Part shown: positions 13,683 to 56,192 of the stretch, piece after piece | Layout: every line of letters begins with the position of its first letter | Numbering within the stretch: the stretch's first letter is position 1 | Origin: Escherichia coli | GTDB lineage: Bacteria; Pseudomonadota; Gammaproteobacteria; Enterobacterales; Enterobacteriaceae | Strand: one strand, 5' to 3' | Assembly: GCF_003790525.1 (NCBI RefSeq) | Contig: NZ_CP033635.1 | Length of the DNA: 64,000 nucleotides | Made by a program: the position numbers and the translations under genes | The notes under the pieces: generated by a model | Told to the model about the DNA's origin: nothing | Database searches by the model: none | Seen by the model: the letters and a program-made list of their open reading frames with translations, nothing else

Positions 13683-14666
13683 CTACGCGCCGTAGTTCTG
13701 GATATAGTGCTCTATCAGCGAAATAAGCCGCGGGTTATCGATGCTCTGCAGAATTGTGACCTGTGCACCTTTTGGTTCAGGGATCCCAATATTGAGGCGT
13801 AATGTGTCACGTCCATAGCAACAAGTCATTCCGCGTGTAATGCCTTCCAGAGATACATCCAGATAATCTTCAGCCGTTGTTGCAAGAGAGGGATCCAGTA
13901 ACCAGGCAATGGTTAACACATCGTGGATCCAACACCCAGGCAGATTGCGGGTTTGCATAGAGTATGTAATCCATGGTCGAATGGTTTGTGCCAAATAACG
14001 GCTAAGCCCGTTTTCTGTTTTTGCTAGACGATCCAAATCGGCGTGAAGCATTTGGGTTTGCGTTGTCACATCCATCGGGACCAGCGTGACTGGCGCACCG
14101 CTGGTGAGCACCGCATGAGCCGCCTCAGGGTCCAGACCAAAATTTGTATCTTTCAGGTAGCCTGGAACATTGAACACGCCACCCATAACGACGATATTTT
14201 TGACCGCGTGAACAATCTGCGGGTAAAGCTGCAGGGCGATGGCTACATTAGTGAGGGGGCCGGTAGCAACCAACGTTATTTCGCCTGGATTACGACAGAT
14301 GAGTTCACCTATTGCTTCAGGCGCATGGGGTTCTACCTGCTGGCACAATGCTGGAGCAGGAACATTCGACCAGAGTTGCCGTAAACCAAACTGATCGACA
14401 CCATGATCCAGTTTTTCACGCCAGGGTTGCGGATCTTCCAAGAGCGCACGCGAGGCACCACGGTAGACCGCAACAGGAATATCCAATTGTGTAATGAGAT
14501 CTCTAGCGACCGCATATCCCACGTCTACCGGCGTATTTCCGGCAACAGTGGTGATCATTTCCAGCGCGATTTGCGGTGCGGCAATGGCCAGCGCCAGCGC
14601 CAGACCGTCGTCGATATTAGCGCCGGGAATGCCGTTCCCCGGATCGCAGTCAATAATGATACGCAT
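13683..14666 (-). CDS. inosine-uridine-preferring nucleoside hydrolase family protein
   Basis: N-terminal IIIDCDPG..DDGLALALA aspartate-cluster motif of IU-nucleoside hydrolases; start chosen at MRIIIDCDPG. Confidence 0.8.
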   Translation of the reverse strand: MRIIIDCDPGNGIPGANIDDGLALALAIAAPQIALEMITTVAGNTPVDVGYAVARDLITQLDIPVAVYRGASRALLEDPQPWREKLDHGVDQFGLRQLWSNVPAPALCQQVEPHAPEAIGELICRNPGEITLVATGPLTNVAIALQLYPQIVHAVKNIVVMGGVFNVPGYLKDTNFGLDPEAAHAVLTSGAPVTLVPMDVTTQTQMLHADLDRLAKTENGLSRYLAQTIRPWITYSMQTRNLPGCWIHDVLTIAWLLDPSLATTAEDYLDVSLEGITRGMTCCYGRDTLRLNIGIPEPKGAQVTILQSIDNPRLISLIEHYIQNYGA

Positions 14667-36789: not shown

Positions 36790-37824
36790 ATGAAAGATTA
36801 TCTACAAACTGTGACGGGCCCCGTCGCCCGTGAAGATATGGGGCTAACACTTCCTCATGAACATCTGTTCAACGATCTTTCCTCTGTTGTGGATGCTCCT
36901 TGCTATCCTTTTTCACAACGGCTTGTTGATAAAAAAGTCACGGCAGAAATCCAGTGGGCATTAAAACACGATCCTTATTGCTGCGCTGATAATATGGACC
37001 GCAAACCTATTGAAGATGTGATCTTCGAAATTAATAACTTTATCTCGCTCGGTGGTCGCACCATTGTTGATGCCACAGGGTCTGAGTCTATCGGACGAGA
37101 TGCGCAGGCATTACGAGAAGTCGCATTAAAAACAGGTCTGAATATTGTTGCTTCCTCCGGTCCCTACCTGGAAAAATTTGAAAGCCAGAGAATTCATAAA
37201 ACGGTTGATGAACTAGCGACAACGATCGATAAAGAATTGAATCAAGGGATTGGCGATACGGATATTCGTGCCGGAATGATCGGTGAAATAGGTGTCTCAC
37301 CGACATTTACCGAAGCCGAGCATAACAGCTTGCGGGCTGCCTCGCTGGCACAGATTAACAATCCTCATGTGGCGATGAATATTCACATGCCGGGCTGGCT
37401 TCGTCGCGGTGATGAAGTACTCGACATTGTGTTAGGTGAAATGGGCGTCTCGCCAAATAAAGTCTCTCTCGCACACTCGGATCCGTCAGGAAAAGACGTG
37501 GCGTATCAGCGGAAAATGCTTGATAAAGGTGTCTGGCTGGAATTCGACATGATTGGCCTAGACATTACCTTCCCGAAAGAGGGAATAGCGCCAGGGGTGC
37601 AGGAGACTGCCGATGCCGTCGCTCATCTCATTGAGTTGGGATACGCCGATCAGCTTGTTCTCAGCCACGATGTCTTCCTTAAACAAATGTGGGCTAAAAA
37701 TGGCGGTAATGGCTGGGGATTTGTTCCAGATGTTTTTCTGGCCTATCTGGCGGAGCGCGGCGTCGATAAAACGATCCTCAAAAAACTCTGTATCGATAAT
37801 CCCGGACGATTATTGACCGCATAA
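36790..37824 (+). CDS. phosphotriesterase-homology protein (amidohydrolase superfamily; putative lactonase/esterase)
   Basis: 344 aa; N-terminal metal-binding motif TLPHEHL and later HxH/D blocks resembling the PTE/Php family. Confidence 0.75.
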   Translation: MKDYLQTVTGPVAREDMGLTLPHEHLFNDLSSVVDAPCYPFSQRLVDKKVTAEIQWALKHDPYCCADNMDRKPIEDVIFEINNFISLGGRTIVDATGSESIGRDAQALREVALKTGLNIVASSGPYLEKFESQRIHKTVDELATTIDKELNQGIGDTDIRAGMIGEIGVSPTFTEAEHNSLRAASLAQINNPHVAMNIHMPGWLRRGDEVLDIVLGEMGVSPNKVSLAHSDPSGKDVAYQRKMLDKGVWLEFDMIGLDITFPKEGIAPGVQETADAVAHLIELGYADQLVLSHDVFLKQMWAKNGGNGWGFVPDVFLAYLAERGVDKTILKKLCIDNPGRLLTA

Positions 37825-49188: not shown

Positions 49189-49271
49189 TTTCAGACAGAT
49201 ATTATTTCCGTGAATCCCCCGCCACCTTTCCGGTGCGCGGGGTTTTGTCTTTTTTCACCGGGAATACATGT

Positions 49272-50144
49272 ATGAATCCGTCTGATGCCATTGAGGCAAT
49301 TGAAAAACCGCTCTCCTCCCTGCCTTACTCACTTTCCCGTCACATCCTGGAACATCTGCGCAAACTCACCAGTCACGAACCCGTGCCTGGCATTATGGGT
49401 AAAAGCGGGGCCGGTAAATCCTCACTCTGTAATGCGCTGTTTCAGGGGGAGATCACCCCGGTCAGTGATGTTCACGCCGGCACCCGGGAAGTGCAGCGCT
49501 TCCGTCTGAATGGCCATGGTCACAGCATGGTTATCACTGACCTGCCCGGGGTGGGCGAGAGCCGGGACAGGGATGCAGAGTATGAAGCCCTGTACCGTGA
49601 CATTCTGCCCGAACTGGACCTGGTACTGTGGCTGATTAAAGCCGATGACCGTGCCCTGTCTGTGGATGAGTATTTCTGGCGACACATCCTGCACCGGGGA
49701 CATCAGCGGGTACTGTTTGTGGTGATGCAGGCCGATAAAACGGAGCCCTGCCATGAATGGGATATGGCCGGTATTCAGCCTTCTCCCGCACAGGCACAGA
49801 ACATTCGCGAAAAAACGGAGGCGGTATTCCGTCTGTTCCGGCCCGTACATCGGGTTGTTGCCGTATCGGCCCGCACCGGCTGGGAACTGGATACGCTGGT
49901 CAGTGCGCTCATGACAGCACTTCCCGACCATGCCGCCAGTCCCCTGATGACCCGCCTGCAGGACGAGCTGCGCACGGAATCTGTCCGCGCTCAGGCCCGT
50001 GAACAGTTTACCGGTGCGGTGGACCGGATATTTGACACGGCGGAGAGCGCCTGTATTGCCTCTGTTGCACGCACGGTTCTGCGTGCCGTCCGTGACTCGG
50101 TGGTCTCTGTTGCCCGCGCGGTATGGAACTGGATTTTCTTCTGA
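49272..50144 (+). CDS. YeeP/YfjP/YkfA-family small GTPase (50S-ribosome-binding GTPase fold)
   Basis: P-loop GIMGKSGAGKSS, DLPG (G3) and Mxxx ADK-like G4; start taken at MNPSDAIEAIEKP. Confidence 0.8.
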   Translation: MNPSDAIEAIEKPLSSLPYSLSRHILEHLRKLTSHEPVPGIMGKSGAGKSSLCNALFQGEITPVSDVHAGTREVQRFRLNGHGHSMVITDLPGVGESRDRDAEYEALYRDILPELDLVLWLIKADDRALSVDEYFWRHILHRGHQRVLFVVMQADKTEPCHEWDMAGIQPSPAQAQNIREKTEAVFRLFRPVHRVVAVSARTGWELDTLVSALMTALPDHAASPLMTRLQDELRTESVRAQAREQFTGAVDRIFDTAESACIASVARTVLRAVRDSVVSVARAVWNWIFF

Positions 50145-50260
50145 ACCCGGTGGTGATGTACCAGGCTGTTGTTACAGATTTTTAACTCCATGAAAACACT
50201 ATGCAAACGCAGCCATACCCGGGTTGTCCCCTTGCGTTGTGTTTCTCAAGTTAATAGAAT

Positions 50261-50305
50261 GCATCGATCGTTACTATCATATCGATCGTTATAAACGATC
50301 GTTTG
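50261..50305. promoter_or_regulatory. cluster of three GATC-containing palindromic repeats (ATCGATCGTTA x2, AAACGATCGTTT) upstream of the dynamin-like operon; candidate Dam/OxyR-type phase-variation switch
   Basis: GATC at 50266, 50284 and 50297 within 35 bp, embedded in direct/palindromic repeats; sits where the agn43 (flu) regulatory region lies in CP4-44. Confidence 0.5.
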
Positions 50306-50361
50306 TAGTAAATGACCTCCTCCGTGGTTGTCATGAAAATGCGTCTTAGGAAGGTTAAATA

Positions 50362-52758
50362 ATGCACGAAAAGAACATCGCCCTGCTTTGTGATGAAGCC
50401 GACCGACTTTTGCAACTGAACATTAATCTGCTCCGGCAAATGGTTGAGGAGCCAGATGTGTTATCTGACAGTAAGAACGAAAACAGACTGCTTTTTGATA
50501 AACAGAAAGCACTGAAAAGAATTGAGGAGCTGGAGGGCGAACAAATCAAAACCGCCCGCAGGGAGATGGTGCTGGCTGTTGTCGGCACGATGAAAGCAGG
50601 CAAATCAACCACCATCAACGCCATTGTGGGGCAGGAAATTCTGCCTAACCGTAACCGCCCCATGACCTCTGTACCGACGCTCATCCGCCACGTTCCCGGA
50701 AAAACTGAGCCGGTTCTCCATCTGGAACATATTCAGCCTGTCCGCAATTTATTAATCACACTGCAGGAAAAACTCGCCACCCCGGCAGGACAGCAGGTCG
50801 CACAGACCCTGCAGCAAACCGGGGATACCCGCGAACTGCTGGATATTCTGACGGATGATGGCTGGCTCAAAAATGAATACCACGGGGAGGAGGAAATCTT
50901 TACCGGACTGGCATCGTTAAACGATCTGGTTCGTCTTGCTGCGGCAATGGGGACTGAATTTCCTTTTGATGAATACGCAGAAGTGCAGAAACTGCCGGTG
51001 ATCGACGTGGAATTCAGCCATCTGGTGGGGATGGATGCATGCCAGGGAACACTCACACTGCTGGATACCCCCGGCCCTAATGAGGCCGGACAACCGCAGA
51101 TGGAAGTGATGATGCGGGATCAACTGCAGAAAGCCTCTGCGGTTCTGGCTGTGATGGATTACACCCAGATGAACTCAAAAGCGGATGAAGACGTCCGTAA
51201 AGAGCTTAATGCCATTGCTGACGTATCAGCCGGCCGCCTGTTTGTACTGGTCAATAAATTTGATGAGAAAGACCGCAATGGCGATGGGGCAGATGCCGTA
51301 CGCCAGAAAGTTCCGGCAATGCTGAACAGCGATGTGCTGCCCGCCTCCCGCGTTTATCCCGGATCCTCACGCCAGGCATACCTGGCTAACCGTGCGCTTC
51401 ATGAGTTACGGAAAAACGGAACCCTTCCTGTTGATGAAGCCTGGGTCGATGATTTTATCAGAGGTGCCTTCGGTTGCATGAAAAAAGAATACGTCTGTAA
51501 AGACAGTGAACTGGCAACTGAAGGGGCGACAGACCTGTGGGAAGGCTCACTTATCGATCAACTGATAACGGAAGTCATACAGAGCTCACATTCCAGAGCT
51601 GCGGCACTGGCGGTTGACTCTGCCGCCGCAAAACTGATGCAGAATGCAGAAAATATCAGTGAATACCTGTTGTTACGCCATCAGGGGCTACAGCAAAGCA
51701 TTCAGTCACTGCAGTCGCATATCACCAGCCTGCTTGCGGATATCCGGGAAATCGCGGACTGTCAGGAGCAGATGACCACTGATGTCAGAATGGCCATGGA
51801 GGAGATCGATACTAAAACCCGGGAATTACTGACGGGGGTCTGCACCTCACTGGAAGAGGAGCTGAATGACTATTTCAGAAGCGGTAAACGCAAAGAACAG
51901 CAAATGCTGGAGGAAGAAGACGCAGAACAACGAAGGTCTCAGTCCGGATTATGGGGGAAAATTTCTCAATGGTCCGGTATCAACAACCAGGGCCGGGAGG
52001 ATTACAGGAAACGAGATTTTGCCCCGGACAGCCCCGAAATAAAATTCAGTGATCGCAGGGAAGCCCTTGAACTGATGACGCAAATCGAATCGACCGTGAC
52101 CAGCCTGCACCGTGAGGCTGAAGCACAGTTCCGGCCTGAGCTGGAGAAAATCGTCAGCGGGATTGAAACAGGTTTTCGTGGCACGGCCCTGTACGCCACA
52201 GAAAACATTGCCGGTCGCATCAATGCCCGCCTGGAGGATGAGGGCTTTACCGTAAAAATCAGTTTTCCGGCAGTCAGCCAGTTACAGACCCGGCTCGCGG
52301 TAAAAATAAATCTGAGTGCGCTTATGGAGGAAAGAACGGAGACCGTCACCCGTCGCCGTCGGCAGAGTGGCGTATGGGGAACCGTTTGTCGATGGTTTGG
52401 CACCAGTGACCTGGGCTGGGAAAACTATGACGAGGATGTGAGTCGCAGCGTGATCAATATCAACAAGGTCAGAGAGGAAGTTATGTCACTGACCCGGGCA
52501 TATTTCGGGGAGCTGCAGGCATCCATTGAGCAGGATATTAACCAGCCCGTCCGCCAGGAAATCGATGCCTTTTTCTGCGCATTCAGGGAGAAAGTTGAAC
52601 AACTGCGTAACACGCTGATTCAGAGCTCTGAAGATCATAAACGCGATCAGCAGGCGCAGGAACGGCTTACCGGGCGACTTCAGGCATTAAATGAAAGGGT
52701 TCCTGAGCTCATTACTGACAGTAAGGCGCTGAGGGAAGAGCTGGAGACAATGCTGTGA
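50362..52758 (+). CDS. dynamin-like GTPase (bacterial dynamin-like protein; CrfC/YjdA paralog)
   Basis: 798 aa; AGGAAGG RBS; P-loop GTMKAGKST (G75-S82), G3 LLDTPGPNEAGQ, G4 VLVNKFDE; N-terminal 330 aa closely parallel K-12 YjdA/CrfC as recalled; long coiled-coil C-terminal half. Confidence 0.85.
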   Translation: MHEKNIALLCDEADRLLQLNINLLRQMVEEPDVLSDSKNENRLLFDKQKALKRIEELEGEQIKTARREMVLAVVGTMKAGKSTTINAIVGQEILPNRNRPMTSVPTLIRHVPGKTEPVLHLEHIQPVRNLLITLQEKLATPAGQQVAQTLQQTGDTRELLDILTDDGWLKNEYHGEEEIFTGLASLNDLVRLAAAMGTEFPFDEYAEVQKLPVIDVEFSHLVGMDACQGTLTLLDTPGPNEAGQPQMEVMMRDQLQKASAVLAVMDYTQMNSKADEDVRKELNAIADVSAGRLFVLVNKFDEKDRNGDGADAVRQKVPAMLNSDVLPASRVYPGSSRQAYLANRALHELRKNGTLPVDEAWVDDFIRGAFGCMKKEYVCKDSELATEGATDLWEGSLIDQLITEVIQSSHSRAAALAVDSAAAKLMQNAENISEYLLLRHQGLQQSIQSLQSHITSLLADIREIADCQEQMTTDVRMAMEEIDTKTRELLTGVCTSLEEELNDYFRSGKRKEQQMLEEEDAEQRRSQSGLWGKISQWSGINNQGREDYRKRDFAPDSPEIKFSDRREALELMTQIESTVTSLHREAEAQFRPELEKIVSGIETGFRGTALYATENIAGRINARLEDEGFTVKISFPAVSQLQTRLAVKINLSALMEERTETVTRRRRQSGVWGTVCRWFGTSDLGWENYDEDVSRSVININKVREEVMSLTRAYFGELQASIEQDINQPVRQEIDAFFCAFREKVEQLRNTLIQSSEDHKRDQQAQERLTGRLQALNERVPELITDSKALREELETML

Positions 52759-53660
52759 CTTCACCATTTATTCAACAAATTGCTGATAACCGGGTATGTC
52801 AGGTACTCACCTGTCTTCCTGAAAAATTTGTGGTTGATTTCGCAAACGGAATCGATGTTGCACAGGAGCATATCCGCACGGCCGGAGAGCGCACGTTCTT
52901 CCGGCGTTTAAAAGAGGGGCTGACCGGCGAAGGCGCTGCACGGCAGAATGCCATCAATGCGTCGCTTGCACAGGGCGTTGAGGCGTCCCTGCGCTGGCTG
53001 ACGGAGATGACAACGTCACTTGCCACCACAAACTACGCGATTACCCGGGTAAACGACAGGGTCAGTTCACTGGTCAGTGATACAGCCAGGCTGGCGCATT
53101 ATTCCGCAGATACGCGGGAGCAGTTACTCACCCTGGCCGATCAGGTTCACCATAAACTGAATCATCTTGAAGAAAAACTCCACCGTGTTGACCAGGTTCA
53201 GCGGGCGCAGTTACATCTTGAGCAGATATTCTCATGGTGGAGCGCCGGGCGATATGCGTCATTTTCCCCTGCCGGACGTTGTTATGTGGCACTTGAAGAG
53301 CTTCGCTGGGGCGCGTTTGGTGATGTGATACGTCAGAGCGAAACAGGCCAGGTTAACCAGCTACTGGATATTCTCAGACATAAAGCATTAACGCAGATGG
53401 CACAGGAGAGTGGCGGTAGTGCAACCGTGCGTCTGAACACTCTGGACTGGCTTGGTGGTCAGGGCCGGGAGCAGGCAGATAACGAGTGGCATGACGCGAT
53501 TAACTGGCTGGGAGACTGGTGCAGTGAAGAGCAGCATCCGGTGATCTGGTCAACCACGCAGGCTGCAGAACACTTACCGGTTCGCATGCCTCGCCTCTGC
53601 TCTGCAGAACGCCTCTCTGAAAGTATGGTCGATGAAATATTTCAGAAGGGGGCTGCATGA
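52755..53660 (+). CDS. YjcZ-like protein (partner of dynamin-like GTPase), unknown function
   Basis: 301 aa; GTG start overlapping upstream stop (GTGA); same gene order as yjdA-yjcZ in K-12. Confidence 0.6.
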   Translation: MTSPFIQQIADNRVCQVLTCLPEKFVVDFANGIDVAQEHIRTAGERTFFRRLKEGLTGEGAARQNAINASLAQGVEASLRWLTEMTTSLATTNYAITRVNDRVSSLVSDTARLAHYSADTREQLLTLADQVHHKLNHLEEKLHRVDQVQRAQLHLEQIFSWWSAGRYASFSPAGRCYVALEELRWGAFGDVIRQSETGQVNQLLDILRHKALTQMAQESGGSATVRLNTLDWLGGQGREQADNEWHDAINWLGDWCSEEQHPVIWSTTQAAEHLPVRMPRLCSAERLSESMVDEIFQKGAA

Positions 53661-54727
53661 GTACAGAAATGAAAACGGGGCTGGTGCTGTCCGGTGGCGG
53701 GGCGGTGGGCGCTTATCAGGCGGGAGTGGTTAAGGCACTGGCAGAGTGTGGTACACAGATCAGCATGGTTTCAGGGGCCAGCATTGGCGCATTCAATGGT
53801 GCCATTATCGCGGCCTCTACCGATCTGTCAGAAGCTGCCGTACGCCTGGAGGCGCTCTGGGATCATCTGGGGAATAATCAGGTGCTGTCGGTAAACAGAT
53901 TGGTTTACTTTTCATTGCTGAAAAAATTGTTCCAGGCAATGAACCTCTGCCAGATCCCCGGACGTGCAGGAGCACTGCTTACGACGCTTCTTCGCCATAT
54001 ATCGACAATCAACGGGTTTGACAATCTGATGGCTCAGCCGTTGTTGTCAGATGAGCCCCTGACAGCGCTGATGGATCATTATCTTGATACTGATGCTCTG
54101 GCAGACGGGCTACCGCTGTATGTGTCGCTGTACCCCACAGAAGGGGGCATGCAGGATATTATTGACTGCATTCGTGCTGAACTGGGTGTCGGAACCACGA
54201 AAAACGCCGTTTTTCAGCATATCCAGAGCCTGCCCCGCGGACAGCAGAAAGAGGCTCTGCTTGCGTCAGCCGCGCTGCCCCTGCTGTTCCGTCCCCGTGA
54301 GGTTCAGGGGACAATGTTCGGTGATGGTGGTATGGGAGGATGGCGAAATATGCAGGGAAATACCCCTGTGACGCCTCTGGTCGATGCCGGATGCAATATG
54401 GTGATTGTGACGCATCTGAGTGACGGTTCTTTATGGGATCGCCAGGCTTTTCCGGACACCACAATCCTTGAGATCCGTCCCCGGAAAAGGCTGAAATATG
54501 CAGGTGATGGTGGCAACAGCGGCGGTCTGCTCAGTTTTACATCGGCACATACCGACGCCTGGCGTCAGCAGGGCTATGAAGACACGATGCTGGCGATGGA
54601 GCATATCCGGAAACCGCTGGCAGCACGTCAGGCACTGACCCGGTCAGAGGCGGTATTGCAGAAAAGCCTGGATATAACGGAAGAGGCAGATTTGGCACTG
54701 AGAAACGCGATGGCCCGGATTAAATAA
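53657..54727 (+). CDS. patatin-like phospholipase
   Basis: 356 aa; oxyanion/glycine-rich loop GLVLSGGGAVGAYQAG, nucleophile elbow GASIG (Ser42), catalytic Asp motif FGDGGM; ATG overlaps upstream stop (ATGA). Confidence 0.85.
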   Translation: MSTEMKTGLVLSGGGAVGAYQAGVVKALAECGTQISMVSGASIGAFNGAIIAASTDLSEAAVRLEALWDHLGNNQVLSVNRLVYFSLLKKLFQAMNLCQIPGRAGALLTTLLRHISTINGFDNLMAQPLLSDEPLTALMDHYLDTDALADGLPLYVSLYPTEGGMQDIIDCIRAELGVGTTKNAVFQHIQSLPRGQQKEALLASAALPLLFRPREVQGTMFGDGGMGGWRNMQGNTPVTPLVDAGCNMVIVTHLSDGSLWDRQAFPDTTILEIRPRKRLKYAGDGGNSGGLLSFTSAHTDAWRQQGYEDTMLAMEHIRKPLAARQALTRSEAVLQKSLDITEEADLALRNAMARIK

Positions 54728-54859: not shown

Positions 54860-55546
54860 ATTATGAAATTACCTGTAAAGTTATTAATGAGCCTTATATC
54901 TCTGGTCAGCGTTATTGCACGTGCCGGGGAATATAAAAATTACAGCCGGGATGAAATAAAATACTGGCGATATACATCATACAAGGGGGGGAAACTTCCG
55001 GAAGGTTTCACTGATGAGAAATTTTCCAGCGCCATTTACAACGGAAGAATATTTACAATGAAACGTTTACATACCCTTATGTTATTTCTGGCGGTTCTGT
55101 TCACGGGCTTTAACTTTAACGCAGAAGCGGCTACCGTAAAACAAGCTCTTAGTTGTAACCCGGAAGCCTGGGCTGAACAACCTGGAGCGTGTCCATCAAC
55201 GTACGAGTTGTACGAAGGTGACGCTACCTACAAAGCCGCTATCGACAAAGCATTAAAACCGGTCGGACTGAGCGGCATGTTCGGTAAAGGCGGCTATATG
55301 GATGGCCCTGGTGGAGGTATCACGCCAGTAAACATTAACGGTACAGTCTGGTTCCAGGGCGACGGTTGCAAAGCCAATACCTGCGGCTGGGACTTTATCG
55401 TAACACTCTATAACCCAAAAACCCATGAAGTTGTTGGCTACCGTTACTTTGGTTTAGATGACCCGGCCTACCTGGTTTGGTTCGGTGAAATTGGCGTGCA
55501 TGAATTCGCGTATCTGGTGAAAAACTACGTAGCTGCGGTTAACTAA
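54860..55546 (+). CDS. secreted/periplasmic protein of unknown function (possibly lysozyme-inhibitor-like); start uncertain (alternative ATG at 55060)
   Basis: in-frame ORF with two signal-peptide-like segments (MKLPVKLLMSLISLVSVIARA and MKRLHTLMLFLAVLFTGFNFNAEA); Cys-containing C-terminal domain. Confidence 0.45.
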   Translation: MMKLPVKLLMSLISLVSVIARAGEYKNYSRDEIKYWRYTSYKGGKLPEGFTDEKFSSAIYNGRIFTMKRLHTLMLFLAVLFTGFNFNAEAATVKQALSCNPEAWAEQPGACPSTYELYEGDATYKAAIDKALKPVGLSGMFGKGGYMDGPGGGITPVNINGTVWFQGDGCKANTCGWDFIVTLYNPKTHEVVGYRYFGLDDPAYLVWFGEIGVHEFAYLVKNYVAAVN

Positions 55547-55561
55547 TTTAAGGAGTCTATC

Positions 55562-55972
55562 ATGAAAACTTTTATCAAAACTTTACTCGTTGCTGTAACT
55601 ATTCTGTTCTCTGTCTTCGCTACTGCGAAACAAGTAAAACTGCCAAATAACATCAAATACGTTAATACTACAGAAGCGTTTTCCTGTACCGAAATTGACG
55701 GTATGAATTGCCAGACAAAGAATCAGTTCAACTATAAAGATAACAGCTATGTTTTCGTGCTTGAGCGTGGTGGTGCCTGGTGCTACGACTACACTGTCTC
55801 GGTAGTTAACCTGAAAACCGGGAAAGCACAAATGATTGAATACGGGGACAATCAACTGTGCTCAGGTAGCAACAAACCGTTCTTCGAAATCAAAAATGGC
55901 GTACCGACGGTAGGAGTCATCGACACATCCGGAAAACCTGTCGTTGTAGCCCAGGACAAACTTAAAATCTAA
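55562..55972 (+). CDS. small secreted protein of unknown function (signal peptide, 6 Cys)
   Basis: AAGGAG RBS; MKTFIKTLLVAVTILFSVFATA signal peptide; 136 aa. Confidence 0.6.
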   Translation: MKTFIKTLLVAVTILFSVFATAKQVKLPNNIKYVNTTEAFSCTEIDGMNCQTKNQFNYKDNSYVFVLERGGAWCYDYTVSVVNLKTGKAQMIEYGDNQLCSGSNKPFFEIKNGVPTVGVIDTSGKPVVVAQDKLKI

Positions 55973-56192
55973 GGAGTAAACCATGCGTTTCTCTGCACAT
56001 TATTAATATCAAAGGTAAATACAGCCCCAGCCATTGTTACCGGAAAGCCGCTTAATGCGTGGCTCGCCAGTGAAAGGCCTCTCAGACAATAAACCTTATT
56101 CATTTCACCCGTCAGGCCGCGTCTTCTCCGGGAGACGCGGCTTTTTTCATTTATTGCACCAGTAAATCTTAACCACCGATAAGGAGCAAAGT

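Follow-up and report, generated by a model that had tools for sequence, protein, structure and literature searches.

A predicted agn43-type Dam/OxyR phase switch directly upstream of a dynamin-family operon in Escherichia coli

A region at positions 50232–50318 of a 64,000-nucleotide stretch of Escherichia coli DNA (the window) is, judged by its sequence, an intact member of the agn43 Dam/OxyR switch family, comprising a promoter, a predicted OxyR site and a GATC triplet. The gene that follows it is not an autotransporter but a dynamin-family GTPase, the first gene of a five-gene unit. agn43 is the textbook Dam/OxyR switch, and it has been treated as specific to the Ag43 adhesin family. We put the probability that the region functions as a Dam/OxyR phase switch for the dynamin operon at roughly 0.78, in which case expression of the operon is probably confined to a heritable fraction of the cells. 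OxyR binding, its dependence on methylation, bimodal expression and the transcription start are all features that we infer for this locus. The window matches the CP4-44 chromosomal position of E. coli O103 strain RM8385 at 100% identity, with the sbmC-dacD-sbcB flank, and the features discussed below are collected in Table 1.

The starting observation was a triplet of GATC sites within 45 bp embedded in repeated motifs. Direct reading of the sequence places the three sites exactly where the original prediction had them, and a repeat finder recovers a single family of direct repeats, with ATCGATCGTTA starting at 50263 and again at 50281 and AACGATCGTTT starting at 50294, so the description was accurate. 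The start-to-start spacing of the repeats, and of the GATCs, is 18 and then 13, overlapping palindromes surround each of the three sites, and the sequence of 50240–50310 contains TTAATAGAATGCATCGATCGTTACTATCATATCGATCGTTATAAACGATCGTTTGTAG. Clustering of GATCs was rejected as evidence by itself. At 194 GATCs in the window, or 3.0 per kb, a Poisson estimate for the 64 kb gives ∼1 cluster of three within 45 bp where 2 are found; the second, at 14393–14432, sits inside a 362-aa ORF on the minus strand, has no palindromes and serves as a chance control. It is because of its context that the cluster upstream of the dynamin gene is non-random, as it coincides with the top OxyR-consensus score and with the sole significant match to an agn43-switch profile.

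The alignments indicate that the homology to the agn43 regulatory region is real and goes beyond mere similarity. In K-12, flu (agn43) is indeed the gene after yeeP and has three close GATCs ahead of it, as had been claimed; these lie downstream of TAATAGAAT with a spacing of 19/13 (positions 2818, 2837 and 2850 of the yeeP-flu region as fetched, L001). A blastn comparison of the intergenic region with K-12 finds no similarity past the stop codon at the 3′ end of the GTPase gene, which made a profile and a MAFFT alignment necessary. In the MAFFT alignment, TAATAGAAT of the window, which holds the −10 box, and all three GATCs align with their K-12 counterparts, with a spacing of 18/13 against 19/13; the distance from GATC-II to GATC-III is 13 bp in both. 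The nhmmer profile drew on just three switches linked to autotransporters, those of K-12 flu, O157 cah and ETEC1738 Ag43, and excluded the window. Across the whole window its only significant match is 50232–50318, with E=1.2e-9, in which the −35, the −10 and the three GATCs align. A second match (E=0.0055) reflects the palindromes as read on the reverse strand. The next match that is independent has E=0.14; this sub-threshold match, at 37766–37813 (ATAAAACGATC...TGTATCGATA), is probably due to chance. Finally, blastn provides a bridge to a genuine Ag43/Cah gene, since the window through 50309 matches the sequence upstream of such a gene in ETEC1738 at 70.7% identity over 210 bp. Alignment to the agn43 regulatory region, the check put forward with the original prediction, thus returned homology by MAFFT, nhmmer and blastn.

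The properties of an agn43-type switch that can be examined in sequence are found here, overlap of the OxyR site with the promoter and transcription start being predicted from the conserved hexamers, with a single exception. An Ag43/Cah-family autotransporter as the controlled gene is absent, and a dynamin-family GTPase is there instead, which bears out the claim that a similar GATC triplet stands ahead of a different cargo. Autotransporter cargo, in any case, defines the agn43 gene family and not the switch mechanism.

Table 1. Positions of the switch elements, the cargo genes and the neighboring GTPase gene within the window
Feature	Coordinates	Strand	Description
YeeP-like GTPase gene	49233–50144	+	303-aa ORF with small-GTPase NCBIfam matches; "GTPase family protein", frameshifted in RM8385
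Putative −35 hexamer TTGCGT	50232–50237	+	17-bp spacer to −10
Putative −10 hexamer TAGAAT	50255–50260	+	Within invariant TAATAGAAT
Predicted OxyR tetramer site	50263–50299	.	ATCGATCGTTACTAT-CATATCG-ATCGTTATAAACGAT, 15-7-15; 16/20 consensus match
GATC-I	50266–50269	.	Dam target at positions 4–7 of predicted OxyR half-site 1; aligns with K-12 GATC-I
GATC-II	50284–50287	.	Dam target at the boundary of spacer and half-site 2
GATC-III	50297–50300	.	Dam target at the 3′ end of half-site 2; aligns with K-12 GATC-III
Short 5′ leader	50301–50361	+	Shine-Dalgarno AGGAAGG at 50349–50355; CCTCCTCC tract at 50316–50323 predicted to pair
Dynamin-family GTPase	50362–52758	+	Full-length CrfC/RdcA (YjdA) paralogue; RefSeq "dynamin family protein"
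RdcB-family protein	52755–53660	+	RefSeq annotation; 4-bp overlap with the dynamin gene
Patatin-like phospholipase	53657–54727	+	RefSeq annotation; 4-bp overlap with the RdcB-family gene
Two small signal-peptide ORFs	54863–55546, 55562–55972	+	From translation
Intrinsic terminator-like hairpin	56114–56143	+	13-pair stem with 8 GC pairs, then a T-run; the only strong one, after the fifth ORF

The putative −35 hexamer and its spacing are identical in the cah and ETEC Ag43 alleles and invariant in 16 distinct dynamin-type intergenic sequences, and the −10 hexamer is invariant in all eight switch versions aligned from Escherichia and Citrobacter. The −35 is weak, with only a 3/6 match to TTGACA, and for this reason a generic promoter scan passes over the homologous promoter; the scan favors another, equally weak hexamer pair within the switch, and it predicts no better promoter in 50050–50450. 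The K-12 annotation starts the agn43 leader (isrC) at GATC-I, 6 nt past TAGAAT, and 5′ RACE in EC958 placed the agn43 transcription start 228 bp upstream of the ATG (PMC4807369). For the window, a transcription start at GATC-I, near 50266, is predicted.

The OxyR site was located with the consensus ATAGnTnnnAnCTAT-N7-ATAGnTnnnAnCTAT of Toledano et al. 1994, in the form in which PMC2909390 quotes it, with a typographical slip. Over both strands of the 64 kb, 50263–50299 has the unique top score, the runner-up reaching 14/20. The experimentally established OxyR site of K-12 agn43 scores 14/20 in the same register, and the Citrobacter versions do likewise. The predicted site begins 3 bp past the −10 and contains or abuts all three GATCs, and OxyR bound there would cover approximately −3 to +34 if transcription starts near 50266. 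The 1-bp offset relative to agn43 falls between GATC-I and the CTAT of half-site 1, where it improves the left arm of that half-site. This better OxyR match could bias the switch strongly to OFF or alter its kinetics.

Between the switch and the dynamin ATG lies a short leader, for which RNA folding gives an MFE of −25.7 kcal/mol (z=−2.17). In the predicted fold the tract CCUCCUCC (50316–50323) pairs with the Shine-Dalgarno sequence, and both tracts are nearly invariant among the variants; this pairing is a possible layer of translational control. The leader has no significant similarity to the cah 5′UTR, the flu 5′UTR or the cah-dynamin spacer, and its similarity to the C. braakii leader is marginal (p ∼0.08). 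Comparison of leaders could not place the junction of the switch with the cargo beyond ∼50318.

The first protein of the cargo aligns over its full length with the NCBIfam CrfC model (E=1e-166), but at 556 bits against a curated cutoff of 1146, and is by this measure a CrfC paralogue and not an equivalog. Its GTPase motifs are intact (G1 GTMKAGKS, G3 DTPG and G4 NKFD). The patatin-like protein has intact catalytic motifs as well (GGGAVG, GASIG and DGG), together with weak matches to RssA and to a CBASS lipase. The two small signal-peptide ORFs, which have no Pfam match and no PDB sequence match, are probably the tail of the dynamin transcription unit, and the terminator-like hairpin after them is likely its end. 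Two assignments for these small proteins were considered and discarded, ORF4 as an Ivy-like lysozyme inhibitor for want of a Pfam match, and a relationship to IrmA for want of a PDB sequence match. Beyond them lie genes for DUF932 and antirestriction proteins, followed by yeeS, yeeT, cbeA and cbtA. The cargo had been called a candidate defence operon, a label that finds no support here. PADLOC gives only a weak partial match to LeoBC (E=8.6e-5, residues 29–89 only, with no stretch passing alone) and no match to LeoA. Dynamin-like proteins have been linked to phage defence in work cited in PMC12922286, and a defence role of the cargo is unproven.

On the model of agn43, the mechanism that we propose would be as follows. 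A sigma-70 promoter, TTGCGT-17-TAGAAT, would have its start region overlapped by one OxyR tetramer site with three GATCs. With the GATCs unmethylated, OxyR would bind, repress the promoter and shield the GATCs from Dam, giving the OFF state; were Dam to methylate them after replication, OxyR binding would be blocked and the promoter would fire, giving the ON state. Both states would be heritable, with interconversion at low frequency. The switch would drive the five-gene unit from 50362 to ∼56143, encoding the dynamin, the RdcB-like and patatin-like proteins and the two small secreted proteins. The GTPase gene and the switch together form a conserved cassette of CP4-44-like islands with interchangeable cargo. 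In agn43 itself, OxyR represses through the unmethylated GATC region and methylation blocks its binding, a dam mutant is locked OFF and overproduction of Dam locks the gene ON (PMC2909390, PMC3764049, PMC13337833). The agn43 region also confers heritable ON and OFF states on a foreign gene, that for T7 RNA polymerase (PMC4872104).

We looked for the module elsewhere with a degenerate pattern matching both the K-12 version and that of the window. The pattern scan finds it in E. albertii, with the dynamin operon, in C. braakii and C. amalonaticus, in one viral contig and in at least 120 metagenome contigs; since the pattern requires the GATC cores, the metagenome loci cannot test conservation of the GATCs. 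Among the matches listed, a GTPase gene lies upstream in all 136 of the 136 switch instances classified. The 19/13 form stands, among these matches, before Ag43/Cah 106 times and before a 154-aa signal-peptide protein of the Citrobacter type 4 times, while a few instances are deletions or insertions. The 18/13 form, again among the matches listed, occurs with the dynamin operon only, in 21 instances and one ISEcp1-disrupted copy. The GTPase gene is annotated as frameshifted in RM8385, reduced to ∼145 codons in the B2 strains clone D i14 and Nissle 1917, and a pseudogene in K-12, and the switch is thus kept even where the GTPase gene decays.

Relatives of ORF4 and ORF5 of the window, likewise small secreted proteins, come immediately after the switch in Citrobacter-like loci. 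In one of these, the distant locus L125, one relative is fused to the 154-aa protein of the C. braakii type; ORF4 and ORF5 may be the ancestral tail of the switch-controlled unit. In the viral contig IMGVR_UViG_2534681766_000003 (769–5000), a cah-type switch gives way, part-way into the leader, to phage-like genes that include an HNH endonuclease and terminase subunits, with no autotransporter. Such a junction probably marks a prophage or satellite that either inserted at the agn43 leader or has it as its boundary. The dynamin-type copy of strain 19SZHZ663Rt (∼1656–1665, equivalent to 50301–50308 of the window) has a 2-bp insertion and further changes right after GATC-III; the resulting CGATCGATATGATAGT resembles K-12 flu at this point (CGATCGATAAG), which hints at recombination between switch alleles.

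An alignment of eight switch versions across Escherichia and Citrobacter shows that TAATAGAAT, the three CGATC cores and TATCGATCG are invariant, with flanks that diverge completely; GATC-II lies inside the TATCGATCG block. The dynamin-type E. coli copies compared span 94.5–100% identity. In the eight most divergent copies ascertained by BLAST, and in E. albertii, the −35, the −10, the three GATCs and the OxyR-specified positions are all invariant, GATC-I among them. Across 16 distinct intergenic sequences, four sites vary within the 37-bp OxyR site, all of them at unspecified positions of the consensus. Counting only positions that the scan pattern does not force, variation falls at 0 of 9 specified and 4 of 11 unspecified positions (hypergeometric p ∼0.07), an enrichment at unspecified OxyR positions that is only suggestive. 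No excess of intergenic conservation was found, with 94–100% identity in the intergenic region against 94–99.9% in the dynamin gene. What we claim is that the switch is intact, not that it is under excess constraint.

That the intergenic region as a whole is conserved no better than the flanking genes is what gives some weight to a different reading, in which the region is a fossil, a piece of agn43 or cah regulatory DNA left over after loss of the autotransporter, and the operon is silent, constitutive or driven from elsewhere. The island is remodeled often, as seen in deletion of the autotransporter (locus L013), phage genes placed after the switch (L016) and insertion of ISEcp1 (L003), and many copies of the GTPase gene ahead of the switch are pseudogenes or truncated. 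We nevertheless regard a relic as unlikely. Only ∼60 bp separate the switch from the ATG, with no better promoter predicted nearby, and the functional elements are intact in every copy ascertained by BLAST, including the most divergent and that of E. albertii. In addition, the match to the OxyR consensus exceeds that of the functional K-12 site, and expression of the operon in MP1, described below, differs strongly from strain to strain.

The arrangement is common. Among 5,426 complete E. coli genomes, the direct junction between switch and dynamin gene has a match in 2,004 genomes at 2,241 places (1,984 of them at ≥80% coverage), with 94.5–100% identity, and the carriers include Nissle 1917, ST131 and CFT073-like strains. 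The cah-dynamin junction of the O157 type is present in at least 635 genomes, and the dynamin gene as such in 2,471 genomes at 2,897 places. The direct fusion is thereby found in ∼37% of complete E. coli genomes and the linkage via cah in ∼12% more. Together the direct and cah-linked arrangements amount to ∼99% of dynamin-gene copies, which puts nearly all copies behind an agn43-type switch. This near-universal linkage of operon and switch may reflect shared descent in one island family, not selection.

In O157:H7, the gene order is GTPase, switch, cah, a 110-bp spacer, dynamin, RdcB and patatin, and neither a terminator nor a promoter is predicted in the spacer. This order qualifies the proposal that the switch was retained while the cargo was exchanged. 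The switch is kept and the cargo does differ, but no clean swap is seen, as O157 has both cargos in tandem and the form in the window lacks the autotransporter. An origin of the window form by a single deletion of cah from an O157-type island was rejected, since the two forms have different sequence over the ∼50 bp that precede the dynamin ATG. One further junction was encountered in strain E27, a urine isolate (NZ_CM143891, 6270–9250). Here, an ISEcp1-blaCTX-M-15 transposition unit sits at the start of the dynamin gene (∼50369 in the window), the switch is intact just upstream of the insertion, and what is left of the dynamin ORF carries the annotation of a pseudogene truncated at its N terminus.

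Expression data bearing on the operon come from an RNA-seq study of E. coli MP1 published in 2026 (PMC12922286). In that study, the homologous five-gene cluster, which is co-regulated, is the strongest difference between separately stocked strains in either medium, in a comparison of two colonies from each of two separate stocks. The published explanation is prophage crosstalk, in which dynamin operons are up-regulated by Kapi1 lysogeny, and the authors stated, in January 2026, that regulation of such dynamins had not been described. A heritable phase difference between the stocks would produce the same result, and the "lysogeny" effect may instead be a clonal ON/OFF difference between stocks. 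Clonal phase states being mistaken for regulation is a pitfall documented for agn43 (PMC3764049). The aspV-island dynamin copies of the related strains clone D i14 and Nissle 1917 carry the switch, and those of MP1 may do so as well.

The MP1 data also weigh on a second alternative, that OxyR represses the operon without phase variation, either because repression is effectively permanent or because Dam always wins, leaving a locked gene or a conventional OxyR target. An operon that is strongly on in one stock and low in another, in both media, argues against a permanent lock, and the 15-7-15 geometry and the positions of GATC-II and GATC-III are those of agn43. On the other hand, switching needs a suitable OxyR affinity and GATC number (Broadbent et al., PMC2909390), and the left arm of half-site 1 is far closer to consensus than that of K-12, with GATC-I shifted by 1 bp. 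On balance we hold this to be improbable, somewhat more so than a relic. That the GATCs cluster by chance, or mark a general SeqA/Dam-related site with no relation to OxyR, is effectively refuted, for although about one triplet is expected per 64 kb and another does occur, the profile match, the unique top OxyR score and a core conserved across genera are not what such a site would show.

The reading that we prefer, a Dam/OxyR phase switch on the dynamin operon, would add a second gene class to the Dam/OxyR phase-variable repertoire of E. coli, with an agn43-type switch fused directly to an operon unrelated to Ag43. It offers a specific hypothesis on how an operon is regulated for which, in January 2026, regulation was called undescribed (PMC12922286). 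It also carries a caution, as differences in the dynamin operon between derivatives of a strain may be clonal phase states and not real regulation. In the literature that we searched, which included few subscription papers, no paper was found that links an agn43-type switch to a dynamin operon or describes a module of GTPase, switch and variable cargo. Methylome and RNA-seq papers on ST131, O111 and UTI89 contained no locus-level data on the switch, and searches of the literature by locus tag added nothing.

A broader idea is more tentative. The GTPase gene and the three-GATC OxyR switch could conceivably be a portable epigenetic bet-hedging cassette of Escherichia and Citrobacter that carries adhesin, dynamin/patatin or small secreted cargo, the dynamin operon being a costly anti-phage or membrane-stress system turned ON in a subpopulation; we consider this possible but doubtful as a whole. 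If it were true, a Dam/OxyR-phase-variable defence system would be present in ∼45% of E. coli genomes, with Nissle 1917, ST131 and O157 among the carriers. Should the operon act in defence or membrane stress, it would illustrate how a system of that kind can be bet-hedged epigenetically.

Among known systems, Eleos (LeoA/LeoBC), a dynamin defence system, does not include the cargo, given its weak partial LeoBC match and the absence of LeoA. The first two proteins of the cargo are full-length paralogues of RdcA/RdcB (YjdA/CrfC-YjcZ) of K-12; the cargo differs in scoring below the CrfC equivalog cutoff and in having an extra patatin gene, and its identity to the core RdcAB is ∼30% (PMC12922286).

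On the side of the switch, the gtr genes of Salmonella and P22, opvAB and mom of phage Mu share the principle that GATC methylation blocks OxyR binding (PMC2909390, PMC4856963). The gtr region has two pairs of GATCs, and its three half-sites make up two alternative OxyR sites, activating or repressing, and opvAB has four OxyR sites. The window, in contrast, appears from its sequence to have the agn43 layout, with a single OxyR site, three GATCs and a repressor-only arrangement; there is one 15-7-15 site, and the next-best register (13/20) overlaps the first. Closer at hand is agn43-yeeR-irmA of uropathogenic E. coli, a single OxyR-repressed transcript (Moriel et al. 2016, PMC4807369), in which non-adhesin genes, including one for a small secreted protein, are expressed from the agn43 promoter. 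The unit in the window likewise ends in small secreted proteins. The two differ in that the extra genes there ride behind agn43, whereas here the switch is fused directly to non-adhesin cargo, and in that no solved structure, that of IrmA among them, shows detectable similarity to the small proteins of the window.

The closest relative of the promoter half of the window is cah of O157:H7, in which the −35 TTGCGT and the 17-bp spacer are identical, and the cah island has the dynamin/RdcB/patatin operon too. O157 has its autotransporter gene interposed between switch and operon, whereas the window has no autotransporter and has the 18/13 allele, and the ∼50 bp ahead of the dynamin ATG are unrelated. 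Relative to agn43 (flu) of K-12 CP4-44, the window differs in its cargo, a cytoplasmic or membrane-acting dynamin/RdcB/patatin operon against a surface autotransporter, in a GATC-I to GATC-II distance of 18 bp against 19 bp, in an OxyR match of 16/20 against 14/20, and in a leader estimated at ∼96 nt against ∼220 nt. What the two have in common is the position downstream of a yeeP-like GTPase gene, the TAATAGAAT −10 box, one OxyR site (experimentally established in K-12, predicted in the window) over three GATCs in the 15-7-15 register, and the 13 bp from GATC-II to GATC-III.
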